Origin: a virus
Taxonomy: Duplodnaviria; Caudoviricetes
Length of the DNA stretch: 64,000 nt
Reading direction: 5' to 3' (one strand)
IMG/VR virus record: IMGVR_UViG_2882828558_000007
Span: 12,097 to 76,096 of that record
Of the stretch, positions 22,875-55,447 are shown in pieces (within the stretch, counting starts at the first letter, position 1; the number at the start of each line of letters is the position of its first letter). The position numbers and the translations under genes were made by a program. The notes beneath the pieces were generated by a model that did not search any database, was not told the DNA's origin, and saw only the letters and a list, made by a program, of their open reading frames with translations.

Positions 22875-24899
22875 TTAGGCCGCCTTGGTGCTGGCCGTGT
22901 TGTCGTTGGCCGAGGGCCATGCCTCTGGCGGGATGACGATGTCGGGGCGGTTGTCTCGGACCCATTCGAGGGCTTCGCGGATGGGGATAAGCTTTCCGTG
23001 GGTCGGGACACCCTGGCGACGCAACGTCTTCACGATTTTTATATTTCTACCGATCCGCCGAGCAAAACTGCTAGCGTTGTCCACCCCCAGCGTGCAGCGC
23101 TTCGCGCTATTGAATAAGATCAGTTGCTCAAAATCGACGTTACGAGACACCCACTCTCTGCCGGCAGCAACAGGAACGAGCAATCCATCGTGGGGCAGAC
23201 CGCGCTTTACCCATGACGAGGCTGTTGTCTCTGCGACATCAAATAAGCGAGCAAAAGAGGCAATAGTGACGGCAGAGTTGTTGTCCTTAAGTGGCAACGT
23301 ATCATGTCTCTCATAGGCGCTTACGTTGTCCTCTACCCACTTGATCGCGTCCGGCCACTTTACCAGATCCCCGACCGTGGGTAGGCCACGGGCTATCCAT
23401 GCCGAAACTTTACGCCGAGGTACGTTTAGGCGTTTTGCGGCAATGTCCAATCGAATGACCGAATTGTTTCGTGCATCATTTCTGCGCTGTCGATCCTTGA
23501 GGTGACCAAGATCAACGTTGGCCTCTACCCATGTGTTCGCATCGTCGATGGGAACCACGGCAGCGCGCAAAGGCATCCCCATCCCCACCCACTTCTGTAA
23601 GGTCGGATGAGACACTCCCCAACGCCTAGCAAATGCCTTCCGTGTCTCACACCCCTCCGGCACCTCGCCCCGGATCTCCCGTAAGGCGCCATCAAATTCG
23701 CCGATCTCCCTGCCCATGGGAAACTCAAACCCGCAAGCGCAGACAGGCTCTCGCTCGGCGCGGACCTCCTTGCACTCTGGGCACTTCCGTGGACCGCGCT
23801 CTAGCGCCTTACGCCGCTCCTTAGCCGCGCCACCGTCTAGGCTCCATGCCCAATTGTCAGCGAACCAGCCGTGTTCGTGGTAGAGACCCGCGTGGTCGAA
23901 TATCATTGCACAGTCTTTGCCCTCGGCGATTCGCAGCACGCGACCAATCATCTGAAGCAGCAGCCGAACAGACCGCGTCGGACGCATCAAGATGACGGCA
24001 TCAATAGCCGGGATGTCGAAGCCTTCCGTAAAGACCTCCACGTTGCTCAACACGCAGATCTCTCCAGAAGCCAAGTCGGCCACAGCGGCGTCGCGCTCGT
24101 CATCGGGCGTGTTCGCATCGACATGTGCCGCCGCAATGCCCTCCTCGCGAAACTTCTCCACCAGCGCCCTGCTCGCGTCTACAGATACAGCAAAGACCAG
24201 CGCCCGCTTGCCCGGAATGCTCTTCTTGTATTCCGACACAGCGTCACCGATCAGAACGGGCGTGTTCATGACCTTCTCGATATCGTCCTTGCGATAGTCG
24301 CCCGCCTGCATGCGTGCGGCAGACAGGTCCGGCTCGGAAGGCGCGAAATAGCGGAACCCTGAAAGCCACCCCTCGTCGACCAGTTCTTTAATGGAGGGAC
24401 CGACGATCATCTCGTCGAACAATTCCCTCAGCCCTGCCCCATCTTGCCGCTCCGGTGTAGCGGTCAGTCCAACATGCTTCGCAGCCTGCGTCTTGTCGCG
24501 GATGTCGCGCCATGAAGCGGCCGGAGTGTGATGGCATTCATCCCAGATGACTAGCGAGGGAGCAGGCAACTTTCCGATCCGCCGGCAAATTGAGCCGACA
24601 GACGCGATTTGCACGCGCTTCTCAGGCTGAAACTCGTACCTCTTGCCGGTTTCTGTATCTTTCGCTGGCGAAATAACCCCGAAATCAATGCCAGCCTCAC
24701 GAAATGCCTTGGCGGTCTGCCTGATAATTTCTTTGCGATGGCACAGAAACCACACGACGCCCTCGTGTCCGGCGACGATCTCCATGGCGGTTTTCGTCTT
24801 TCCGGCGCCAGTCGGCATTTGCAGAACCGCGCTGCCGCTCCGCTCAAGAGCAGCGAGCGTTTTCTCGACGGATTTCGCCTGATATTTTCTCAATGTCAT
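22875..24899 (-). CDS. SF2 (DEAH) helicase with Zn finger and four Nu1-like winged-HTH repeats
   Basis: LRKYQ, PTGAGKT, DECHH, GLTATP, EGFDIP, QMIGR; CPEC..CAC; GAGGAG RBS. Confidence 0.85.
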   Translation of the reverse strand: MTLRKYQAKSVEKTLAALERSGSAVLQMPTGAGKTKTAMEIVAGHEGVVWFLCHRKEIIRQTAKAFREAGIDFGVISPAKDTETGKRYEFQPEKRVQIASVGSICRRIGKLPAPSLVIWDECHHTPAASWRDIRDKTQAAKHVGLTATPERQDGAGLRELFDEMIVGPSIKELVDEGWLSGFRYFAPSEPDLSAARMQAGDYRKDDIEKVMNTPVLIGDAVSEYKKSIPGKRALVFAVSVDASRALVEKFREEGIAAAHVDANTPDDERDAAVADLASGEICVLSNVEVFTEGFDIPAIDAVILMRPTRSVRLLLQMIGRVLRIAEGKDCAMIFDHAGLYHEHGWFADNWAWSLDGGAAKERRKALERGPRKCPECKEVRAEREPVCACGFEFPMGREIGEFDGALREIRGEVPEGCETRKAFARRWGVSHPTLQKWVGMGMPLRAAVVPIDDANTWVEANVDLGHLKDRQRRNDARNNSVIRLDIAAKRLNVPRRKVSAWIARGLPTVGDLVKWPDAIKWVEDNVSAYERHDTLPLKDNNSAVTIASFARLFDVAETTASSWVKRGLPHDGLLVPVAAGREWVSRNVDFEQLILFNSAKRCTLGVDNASSFARRIGRNIKIVKTLRRQGVPTHGKLIPIREALEWVRDNRPDIVIPPEAWPSANDNTASTKAA

Positions 24900-24936
24900 T
24901 GTGTCTCCTCTGGCGCGGTAGTGGTTTGGTGTGCCA

Positions 24937-24965
24937 AAGGTAGTCAATATTTACAAATTTGTCAA
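24937..24965 (-). promoter_or_regulatory. Promoter with 16-bp operator-like dyad
   Basis: TTGACA-17-TACCTT; dyad at 24950-24965. Confidence 0.75.
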
Positions 24966-25345
24966 GCCTCATTCAGATTCAGGACCAGCCTTGTATGGCT
25001 CCGGTCGTCGACGTCAGCCACCTCAAACCAGGGCTCGCCCCATCGTGACAGGGCCTTCACCTTGTCGCCCTGCTTAGGTTGCGGCCCAGTGTAGGTCGTT
25101 CGATCGATATGCAACTGCGCCTTATCGGCAACGATCCGAGAGCGCCAACCAGAATCCCGGCTGCCCGCTACACTGGTCGTCTTCCCCTCGCCGACCCGCA
25201 GGACCGCCTCAATCTCGACCGCCGGCCGCGTCGGATCGACGACGCCACTCTTTAAGAACGACAAGCGTACCGGCTCCGCGAACTTATCGTCCACGGCAGC
25301 CAGCACTTTGTCGCGCAGTTCGTGAAAACGGGCAGAAACTGGCAT
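24962..25345 (-). CDS. Head-tail joining protein
   Basis: Follows the major capsid gene; AEPV, P..GD.V, F.V..VD pattern. Confidence 0.65.
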   Translation of the reverse strand: MPVSARFHELRDKVLAAVDDKFAEPVRLSFLKSGVVDPTRPAVEIEAVLRVGEGKTTSVAGSRDSGWRSRIVADKAQLHIDRTTYTGPQPKQGDKVKALSRWGEPWFEVADVDDRSHTRLVLNLNEA

Positions 25346-53709: not shown

Positions 53710-54843
53710 TTAGGCTGCAGAGACGGAAGCGGCCCGGAATGTCTCTGGGGCCTTCTTGCCGGTATCGACCCAGACATAATCGCCGAAGCGCGCGATTTCG
53801 AAGCCGTAGCCGTTTCGGGTCTTGATCAGACCTGCATGTTGCTGGGCAACCGGCAGGTTATCGTTGTCGGCGTCATGGTACGGCTCACCGAAAGCCACGG
53901 CGTCGCGCTCGACCCAGATATCTAGGCCGGTTGCGTCATCATGGATCTTGTACGGATCGCGGTATGCACCTTCGTCGACAAGGATTATCTCGCCGCTGAC
54001 GATGCCAAAGCCCGCGGCTTTCCCGGTAATGCGATCACCCACCTTGAACTTCGGCCCGTTGTCATTGGCGACGGCGGGCTGCGTGACGGGCTCGTCGACC
54101 CATTCGGCGATGAGGTCCAAGTCGGGATTGTTCTGGATATATTCATTTCCGTGACGGCCGTTCGGCTCGAACGCCCTATGGCCGATCTCTCCTTCGATCA
54201 GGCCAAACCAATAGCCGAAATCCTTGTGAATATTGGCAACCTTCCGCCCATCGCGCGTCTGGTAGAACTTGCTGGCCTCAATCTTTAGGGCTGCCGGTTG
54301 CGGAGCGGCAACGAGCAGCGGTTCGAGGTCGGAAAGGTAGGCAAATTGGTGCAGCACGCCGTGACTGTCCGTCGAGGCGTTAAGCCAGAGGTAATCCGCG
54401 TTCACGCTATCCACCACACACTGCGTCTCGGAGGACACCGCAGGATGAAAGTTTTCGGTCTCGACAACAACCACCCGCTCCCCGACCTTCGGCACCCAGG
54501 CCTCGACGATGTCATCGTCGCCGTGAACCGCACCGCCGGCCTCGTCGAAGATGCGAACGCGCCCGTCGACGACAGCCTCAAAACCGGTGTCGCCCTTGGT
54601 CACGCGGCCAGTCGGCTTGCCGGAACGGGTGCGGTAGTGGTTGCCGGCTTCGATGGTGAAGGCGGGGGTGACGAGTTCGAAGTTCGAAGGACTCCAGCCA
54701 TTTTCCGTGGAGCCGGCATCATCCTCAGCAATACTGATGCTATAATCGTTGATGCCGCTGACGACGTATTCTTTGCCGGTCGTAAACTGCCCATAGTAGC
54801 TGTACAGAGCCCGCACCCGGTCGCCAATCTTGAACTCACCCAT
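53710..54843 (-). CDS. Mosaic protein of tandem SH3-like modules
   Basis: FKIGDRVR, IEAGNHYRTRSG, PKVGERV, IEASKFYQTRDG, FKVGDRI. Confidence 0.65.
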   Translation of the reverse strand: MGEFKIGDRVRALYSYYGQFTTGKEYVVSGINDYSISIAEDDAGSTENGWSPSNFELVTPAFTIEAGNHYRTRSGKPTGRVTKGDTGFEAVVDGRVRIFDEAGGAVHGDDDIVEAWVPKVGERVVVVETENFHPAVSSETQCVVDSVNADYLWLNASTDSHGVLHQFAYLSDLEPLLVAAPQPAALKIEASKFYQTRDGRKVANIHKDFGYWFGLIEGEIGHRAFEPNGRHGNEYIQNNPDLDLIAEWVDEPVTQPAVANDNGPKFKVGDRITGKAAGFGIVSGEIILVDEGAYRDPYKIHDDATGLDIWVERDAVAFGEPYHDADNDNLPVAQQHAGLIKTRNGYGFEIARFGDYVWVDTGKKAPETFRAASVSAA

Positions 54844-55151
54844 CACGCAGCCCCTCCTGTAATTGTTTCGGGGCGCAGACCCCGCGATTTGGTGAAATCG
54901 ACACGAACCACGTTCGTGGTGTCGTCTTCCTTGGCCGGCGGAACTTCCGCCTCCGGATCGTGCTCCATCTCGACGCCGTGCCACCAGATTGTGGTCGCGC
55001 CGTCGGCCAGCCGCACCTGATACTCTGAGCCCCAGTTGCGATCGCCGATGACCTGCCCCGTCAGGTTCGGGTTCTGGCGGGATCGAACCATGTCGCCGAA
55101 GTTGAAGAATTCGCATTCGCAGTCGCTGCGCATCGTGCTGTCGTCGCTCAT
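54843..55151 (-). CDS. Hypothetical SH3-like protein
   Basis: FNFGDMV....G.VIG....G.EY.VRL. Confidence 0.65.
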   Translation of the reverse strand: MSDDSTMRSDCECEFFNFGDMVRSRQNPNLTGQVIGDRNWGSEYQVRLADGATTIWWHGVEMEHDPEAEVPPAKEDDTTNVVRVDFTKSRGLRPETITGGAA

Positions 55152-55447
55152 GCCGCCACCTTCGGTGCGTGACCATCGAGCGTCGGAATCCTGACGACCG
55201 AAACCGGAACCTTGCCGCTCAGCGTGGAGCAGCCTCCGTTGTGGGCTGTCATGCGGGTGACGACATCGGGTCGGTTGTCGTTCGCTGCAACGATCTCGCG
55301 CGGCTTCACTGAACCAAAGGCTCGGCGCAGGCGCTGGTAGGCTGTCATGGGTTTGACGTTGTATCTGGCGGCGATCTCTGCGACGCTCTCCCCGTCTTGA
55401 CGGCGAGCATGCATATCCGCCAGCATCGAGCTGGTGATTGTGGTCAT
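55148..55447 (-). CDS. HTH protein (first gene of leftward operon)
   Basis: GESVAEIAARYNV...TAYQRL. Confidence 0.7.
   Translation of the reverse strand: MTTITSSMLADMHARRQDGESVAEIAARYNVKPMTAYQRLRRAFGSVKPREIVAANDNRPDVVTRMTAHNGGCSTLSGKVPVSVVRIPTLDGHAPKVAA

Follow-up and report, generated by a model that had tools for sequence, protein, structure and literature searches.

The window analysed here, a 64,000-nucleotide stretch of the IMG/VR record IMGVR_UViG_2882828558_000007 (G000:C24:204850-268849, in minus-strand reading), is part of a prophage, some 70 kb in size, that is carried by a 5.4-Mb alphaproteobacterial genome. Proteins of this prophage repeatedly carry a short peptide, ANDN, which is also the head of the degradation tag encoded by the transfer-messenger RNA (tmRNA, ssrA) of the host. 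The head genes, on the minus strand, are of the lambda type and comprise a gpA-type large terminase (TerL), a lambda-family portal, a head protease and an E-type capsid protein. The replication and recombination block, on the same strand, contains a Prim-Pol/AAA_25 primase, two superfamily 2 (SF2) helicases, an AAA_24 ATPase and a DUF669 protein, together with a DnaN beta clamp, a sigma-70-like factor, two DNA methyltransferases, and Cas4-type and other exonucleases. The prophage crosses the left edge of the window and reaches an integrase in the adjoining locus (L084:8709-9797). This flanking segment (L084:1-9800; G000:C24:268850-278650) also encodes a DNA-repair exonuclease ending in AANDNVPAEQRSVA, a deoxyribosyltransferase-like protein and a deoxynucleoside monophosphate (dNMP) kinase, and a second integrase-like gene is found on the opposite strand (L084:10063-10962). 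The AAA_24 protein is 69–85% identical to proteins on 80 IMG/VR contigs and the primase matches phage 16-3 at 30% identity; judging from these protein matches, the prophage is therefore a 16-3-like temperate phage. When the early region was compared with named phages by megablast, two short matches were the only result.

Copies of the motif were counted as in-frame [A/S]NDN, and AAYGAYAAY was the nucleotide pattern scanned. There are 22 such sites in the window, 20 of them on the minus strand, from 22.9 to 55.3 kb, all of which fall in frame within real open reading frames, where they encode 15 [A/S]NDN, two DNDN, two ENDN and one TNDN. The ENDN of the primase and the TNDN of a helicase core were rejected as motif copies, being conserved domain residues; the former (38440-38448) lies within the domain, is kept in a phage without the motif and was therefore excluded from the count. 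The motif-bearing proteins of the window are the following:

22875..24947 (-), SF2 helicase with helix-turn-helix (HTH) repeats; SANDN at 22899-22910; tail SANDNTASTKAA-stop, a complete tag-like end with seven residues after ANDN
29793..31766 (-), large terminase of the gpA type; PANDN at 29892-29903, C-terminal to the nuclease domain and 32 residues from the end; no AA end
32402..33178 (-), homing/HNH endonuclease; SNDN at 32432-32443; tail SNDNDPSKFVRAG-stop
34651..35859 (-), 402-aa protein; internal AANDN at 35497-35508; RAA end
37765..40125 (-), Prim-Pol/AAA_25 primase; PANDN at 38932-38943, directly ahead of the ATPase domain; EAA end
40738..41451 (-), phrog_12600 protein; AANDNY at 40780-40791, identical to the host tag as far as Tyr; tail AANDNYQSAPISRKVSHA-stop
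42034..42885 (-), class I methyltransferase; PANDN at 42076-42087; tail with ANDN, a clamp-type QADLF and SAVAA-stop, 13 residues after ANDN
42885..43463 (-), MT-A70 methyltransferase; AANDN at 42912-42923; tail AANDNIPSLQEAA-stop, in which ANDN is followed by eight residues, the number found in the host tag
46131..47870 (-), SF2 helicase with a zinc ribbon; VANDN at 46206-46217 in the C-terminal tail, followed by a degenerate copy, SNNN; DDIPF end
48016..48528 (-), sigma-70-like factor; HANDN at 48505-48516, residues 5-8, N-terminal to region 2; AAA end
51440..52036 (-), DUF669 protein; motif present twice, at 51533-51544 and at 51509-51520, both within the disordered Ala/Pro/Gln tail
52381..53268 (-), AAA_24 ATPase; SNDN at 52405-52416; tail SNDNAARQEAA-stop, with seven residues after the motif
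53710..55176 (-), 488-aa protein; VANDN at 54058-54069 and DNDN at 53857-53868; SAA end
55148..55447 (-), 99-aa HTH protein; AANDN at 55274-55285, C-terminal to the HTH; VAA end

Together with three motif proteins of the same prophage beyond the window (the exonuclease, the deoxyribosyltransferase-like protein and the dNMP kinase of the flank), the whole prophage holds 18 motifs in 17 unrelated proteins and 18,070 residues, of which 15 motifs in 14 proteins lie inside the window. Its own composition would predict 0.22 motifs and the host rate 0.11 (Poisson P ~1e-28), the host proteome having nine [A/S]NDN in 1,503,068 residues; the residue and motif counts for prophage and host come from rough whole-genome gene calls. 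The initial annotation had described these peptides as phage-wide mimics of the alphaproteobacterial tag. Those that it quoted are all present at the genes to which it assigned them, and the enrichment of [A/S]NDN in the phage relative to the host, which it had named as a check, is evident from the counts just given.

A repeated nucleic-acid signal, located in the DNA or in the mRNA and only incidentally reading as ANDN, might be suspected behind such a series. The 12-nt core is short, its commonest form is GCC/GCG-AAC-GAC-AAC, and the motif somewhat over-uses the GAC codon for Asp (83%, against 61% in the background). The family set comprised 1,808 genes called in the 80 related loci. There, AAYGAYAAY occurs 521 times in frame, 50 times out of frame and 43 times antisense, and in the window all 20 minus-strand sites (20/20) are in the coding frame. 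The Asn codons of the motif are AAC in 59–60% of cases, the background value being 62%, so that their wobble position is free. At orthologous sites the encoding varies and the peptide does not: ANDN is kept in 77 of the 80 relatives at the DUF669 site, through 13 different 12-nt encodings, and in 58 of 72 at the helicase tail, through 19. Because of this frame bias, the background usage at the Asn wobble position and the many encodings at orthologous sites, selection acts on the amino acids and not on the DNA. The repeated DNA or RNA signal was rejected on the same grounds, and the probability that we leave to it is negligible; the nucleotide-level conservation that the initial annotation had set against a peptide signal was not found.

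Across 270 unique contexts the motif reads [A/P/V]-[A/S]-N-D-N-[R/V/x]-[P/Q]-[A/E], with Arg or Val the commonest residue at position +1 after ANDN in the phage copies. All 11 motifs in the Pfam-annotated proteins of the window fall outside the domain envelopes, which cover 62% of the residues (P = 2e-5), and are located in C-terminal tails, in one interdomain linker and in one N-terminal extension. None of the virion proteins of the prophage carries it. The AlphaFold2 model made for the DUF669 protein from 24 aligned sequences is confident at residues 21-159, and the tail containing both motifs has a predicted local distance difference test (pLDDT) score below 50. Among 22 aligned DUF669 tails the only invariant columns are ANDN and the terminal Pro-Trp, the rest being variable and of low complexity; short linear motifs usually show themselves in this way, as an invariant island in a variable, disordered tail. 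In the AAA_24 family the ANDNx cassette is present in some tails and absent from others ahead of a conserved QREAA end, and the motif has thus been gained and lost. As a separate feature, the last residues of the DUF669 protein, R-P-W-G/S-K, are nearly invariant among relatives and form a second conserved peptide; one relative (L038) ends in DDDIPF instead.

The position of the motif at domain-to-tail boundaries would also suit a reading without any receptor, in which A-N-D-N-x-P is a favoured helix stop and linker start that marks the onset of flexible tails. Its Asn, Asp and Pro residues are classic helix breakers and caps. Generic linkers, however, have no need of four invariant residues, and the site is invariant in the 22 aligned tails amid variation. 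The motif is, moreover, absent from the linkers of the host proteome and from the Sinorhizobium phage RHph_X2_26, which has no [A/S]NDN at all despite a primase 48% identical to that of the prophage, and the coupling of the motif to Ala-Ala ends, described below, would go unexplained. We regard this reading as highly improbable.

Two of the motif-bearing tails end in, or contain, another recognizable peptide. The DDIPF end of the helicase at 46131-47870 (-) is the acidic tip of bacterial single-stranded DNA-binding protein (SSB), and nearly all of 73 relatives have DD[E/D][I/V]PF following one or two ANDN; this tail may be an SSB-tail mimic, which would dock on SSB-binding partners. The tail of the class I methyltransferase at 42034-42885 (-) contains a canonical clamp-binding-type QADLF, found as Q[A/P][D/S]LFG in relatives, and the phage has its own DnaN beta clamp at 50235-51293 (-), a combination that suggests clamp-coupled methylation of the phage DNA.

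These tails bear on another possibility, namely that ANDNxP docks on a hub of DNA metabolism (the phage beta clamp, the SSB-like DUF669 protein or some other protein) and that its likeness to the tag is coincidental or secondary. The carriers are nearly all DNA-handling enzymes, plus a sigma factor, in a phage that encodes a clamp of its own, the motif often stands ahead of the other docking peptides QADLF and DDIPF, and the extended consensus x-Pro-Ala/Glu differs from the host tag. The clamp of phage T4, which recruits polymerase and sigma-type tails, provides a likeness. Against this, ANDNxP is without the Gln and the hydrophobic residues of the beta-clamp consensus (Q-x-x-[L/M]-x-F type), and since QADLF and DDIPF stand separately and in canonical form in the same tails, the QADLF of the methyltransferase coming after ANDN, the motif is a separate third module and not a clamp or SSB hook. 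Chance is very unlikely to produce an identity of five residues with the tag head, the coupling to Ala-Ala at the spacing of the tag is left unexplained, and the motif occurs in elements that have no detectable shared proteins in the compared stretches, where helper-dependent satellites are nevertheless conceivable. A receptor of this kind seems to us doubtful, though less so than a peptide without any receptor.

The two-piece tmRNA of the host encodes the tag ANDNYAEARLAA, whose head is the phage motif, and the likeness proposed for this part of the tag holds for the host's own sequence. Among 25 alphaproteobacterial tags read from a sample of the class, 21 begin with ANDN and all 25 end in AA, with 6–9 residues in between, and the position that follows ANDN is variable, being occupied by Y, F, E, S, V, R, D, A or G. 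One sampled genome, G040, which is unpublished, entered neither the alignment nor the list of tags; it was counted in two tallies only, and none of the claims depends on it. Judged by the tags read, the phage copies exactly the class-invariant parts of the tag. The gene sspB is found 140 bp downstream of the host tmRNA gene, and a clpP-clpX operon is present in the host. Among solved structures, that of an Agrobacterium protein (2NYS) is a close relative of the host SspB, which also has homology to SspB-alpha of Caulobacter (2QAS and 2QAZ). SspB is, to our knowledge, the only protein known to read the tag head. The adjacency of ssrA and sspB is seen in the host (G000:C13:242077-243042) and recurs in the majority of the alphaproteobacterial genomes sampled (loci L085-L113 and L234-L263). 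In Caulobacter, a genetically fused ssrA tag leads to very rapid proteolysis and deletion of sspB slows the degradation (PMC9393093).

The terminal Ala-Ala is found at the C-terminus of 16 proteins of the window, in line with the earlier statement that there were more than 15. Nine of the 14 motif-bearing proteins end in this way and five do not; the other AA-ended proteins are as follows:

36379..36999 (-), HNH endonuclease; RAA end, without ANDN
37443..37652 (-), small protein; EAA end, without ANDN
44535..45293 (-), exonuclease; VAA end, without ANDN
48547..48936 (-), small protein; KAA end, its stop not overlapping the next gene
50020..50235 (-), small protein; VAA end
56443..56733 (-), small protein; LAA end, identical to the last three residues of the host tag, its stop not overlapping the next gene
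61796..61993 (+), small protein; RAA end

When only called genes of 80 aa or more are compared, AA ends are found in 15/66 of those of the prophage, against 217/4471 of those of the host (odds ratio 5.8, P = 7e-7). Ala-Ala is also the commonest C-terminal dipeptide of the host proteins themselves (4.9%), at about three times the frequency predicted from composition and independently of gene overlap. A caveat attached to the initial annotation was that EAA ends can arise from translational coupling, and this source was rejected. The host rate is similar at overlapped and other junctions (5.8–5.9% at ATGA/TGATG junctions and 4.5% elsewhere), and seven of the 16 AA ends in the window do not touch the next start codon, so the caveat fails; the prophage rate is raised in every junction class, being 33% at ATGA/GTGA junctions, 1/6 at TGATG/TAATG junctions and 18% elsewhere.

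Motif and Ala-Ala end are coupled. Among the unique proteins of the family, AA ends occur in 139 of the 321 with the motif and in 167 of the 1268 without it, relatives not being independent of one another, and the coupling depends on spacing: with 5–13 residues after ANDN, 60 of 94 proteins are AA-ended, and with 14–25 residues, 21 of 145. The family spacing peaks at 6, 8 and 9 residues, the native tags having 6–9. Complete tag-like ends, consisting of ANDN, 7–13 residues and AA, are found in four proteins of the window: the helicase at 22875 (seven residues), the MT-A70 methyltransferase (eight), the AAA_24 ATPase (seven) and the class I methyltransferase (13). Internal and N-terminal copies are outside the native spacing.

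This coupling also bears on whether the motif could act as a decoy, with abundant ANDN proteins titrating SspB or blocking its groove, thereby altering the fate of tmRNA-tagged and other SspB clients or protecting phage proteins. Mimicry of the tag head is evidence for a decoy as much as for degradation, a spread over 17 proteins would suit saturation of the receptor, and several carriers have no AA end, among them the DUF669 protein, with its two tandem motifs and probably abundant. A pure decoy would have no need, however, of a strong coupling to a C-terminal AA at native spacing or of complete tag-like ends that recur in 11 protein families, and one dedicated inhibitor would be simpler than 17 modified enzymes. 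We consider a decoy role improbable.

In the 80 relatives of 16-3, the stretches within ±10 kb of the AAA_24 gene hold motif-bearing proteins of 30 unrelated families, and complete tag-like tails are found in 11 of these. A pattern scan of IMG/VR for AANDNxPA, which yields examples and not frequencies, extended this to other elements: among the matches listed there are many multi-motif loci, at least 40 of them with little or no protein similarity to 16-3-like loci. One unrelated element, with an HK97-type portal, a protease, a capsid protein, a terminase and a serine integrase, has eight motifs in 14.7 kb, and its portal tail reads ANDN-KPKPKPKE-AAA. Small integrative elements with a primase, one of them with a fused protease-capsid gene, are also motif-bearing. 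Named relatives of the two densest unrelated loci were not found, and a search of genome contigs with the L190 portal gave one relative, of 40% identity, in Mesorhizobium dulcispinae. The HK97-type prophage of this species (L264; NZ_JAVIIY010000002.1:444684-461880) carries four motifs in 17 kb, three in complete tag-like C-termini (SNDNARAMSVAA, AANDNSERKVAA and, in the portal, AANDNKPKPKEAAA) and the fourth ANDN near the N-terminus of the terminase. A further arrangement is seen in the small integrative primase elements L170, L126, L188 and L173 of IMG/VR, where short proteins with the look of AlpA/excisionase-type regulators start with M-x-x-[A/S]-N-D-N-[Y/F/T]-P-x-L-I-S-L.

The motif is not general to the phages of this host group, since RHph_X2_26 is without it; this phage is probably virulent, because no integrase is annotated. 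As far as these comparisons reach, the motif arose repeatedly in integrative elements and is specific neither to host proteins nor to all phages of the host. Its recurrence in unrelated integrative elements favours a shared host receptor over a phage-encoded one, and satellites borrowing the receptor of a helper could provide an alternative. The interpretation given in the initial annotation is partly supported; its restriction to early proteins proved too narrow, as TerL, the homing endonuclease and, in unrelated elements, a portal carry the motif.

Since it is the class-invariant head of alphaproteobacterial tmRNA tags that the motif reproduces, SspB is its most likely receptor, and from the pattern described above we infer binding to SspB, degradation by ClpXP and a biological purpose. 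The reading that we favour, by a modest degree of belief, is that ANDN docks phage proteins on the host SspB and that the AA-ended tails are complete ClpXP degrons. The short linear motif [A/P]-A-N-D-N-x-P would have evolved repeatedly in exposed, disordered parts of non-virion proteins, in the 16-3-like phage and in other Rhizobiales elements, and SspB would tether the proteins that bear it to ClpX. When ANDN is followed by 5–13 residues and Ala-Ala-COOH, as in the four window proteins, the tail would be a complete genome-encoded ssrA-like degron, degraded by ClpXP with acceleration by SspB. AA-ended proteins with the motif elsewhere would likewise be delivered, but by way of a longer tether, and motif proteins without an AA end would only be docked on SspB. 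Overall, nucleases, helicases, methylases, the sigma factor of the phage and the terminase would be short-lived under the control of the host, with the virion proteins remaining stable.

Several observations weigh against degradation through SspB and ClpXP. About half of the motif proteins have no AA end; in the window, such carriers (TerL, the DUF669 protein, the DDIPF helicase, the homing endonuclease and the phrog_12600 protein) hold six of the 15 motifs, and they cannot be simple tags. Only (A)ANDN is common to the phage and the host tag, the phage copies continuing with x-Pro-Ala/Glu and the host tag with Tyr-Ala-Glu, and if rhizobial SspB relies on the aromatic residue, its binding to most of the phage copies would be weak. 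Avoidance of the motif by the host was not seen, nine copies being observed in its proteome against about 11 expected. Finally, in unrelated elements the portal and the N-terminal region of a capsid protein carry the motif, which fits poorly with the turnover of early proteins.

The closest known system is the native alphaproteobacterial ssrA tag, (A)ANDNYAEARLAA in the host and AANDNFAEEFAVAA in Caulobacter, which resembles the phage tails in its (A)ANDN head and its terminal Ala-Ala-COOH. The spacing after ANDN is 6–9 residues in the native tags and 7–13 in the four window proteins, the phage tails are exposed and unstructured, and the host has ssrA, sspB and clpPX. The native tag is added by trans-translation, whereas the phage tails are encoded in the genes and the motif is also found at internal and N-terminal positions; the middle parts are unrelated, with x-Pro-Ala/Glu after ANDN in the phage, and many phage copies are without AA. 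Engineered ssrA-derived degrons, such as those of the DAS type and the fused ssrA tags with which proteins are depleted, are likewise genome-encoded with an intact SspB-binding head. In some of them the ClpX-binding end is weakened, which makes degradation dependent on the adaptor. These degrons are man-made and attached to one protein each, whereas the phage pattern is natural, extends over 17 proteins and is common to a phage family. Among natural substrates, an N-terminal fragment of E. coli RseA is an SspB client unrelated to ssrA, and lambda O, Mu transposase and repressor variants are phage substrates of ClpXP. As here, a short peptide within a native protein is read by the adaptor or by ClpX, and phage replication and regulatory proteins are short-lived; these are, however, single proteins with unrelated signals, with no copy of the tag head and no proteome-wide pattern. 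Motif mimicry by eukaryotic viruses is similar in that short host-recognition peptides are convergent in the disordered regions of many viral proteins. We know of no example on this scale in bacterial viruses, and none was found in the literature searched.

Two other features of the prophage are a tRNA-Met gene at 33866-33941 (-), which separates the replication and packaging modules, and a 411-aa protein (56992-58227, -) whose only match, a weak one, is to a transposase-family PHROG (phrog_4285).

A wider proposal, which we put forward tentatively and with less confidence than the docking itself, is that the mobile elements of Rhizobiales (16-3-like phages, HK97-type prophages and small integrative primase elements) convergently use the tag head as a common docking code, and that SspB-ClpXP and the physiological state of the host set the lifetime of dozens of phage proteins. 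The motif is carried by the well-studied phage 16-3, and no published description of it in phages was found in the literature searched. If the docking code is real, it would be the first case of proteome-wide mimicry through a short linear motif in bacterial viruses. If SspB reads these motifs, bacterial viruses would be seen, like eukaryotic viruses, to evolve host-mimicking short linear motifs throughout their proteomes, and natural, tunable degrons would become available for rhizobia and agrobacteria. In that case, a class of temperate phages hands the lifetimes of its enzymes over to a quality-control adaptor of the host, and this would offer a mechanism by which leaky prophage nucleases, methylases and helicases are kept harmless, the switch from early to late functions is timed and phage development is coupled to host physiology.

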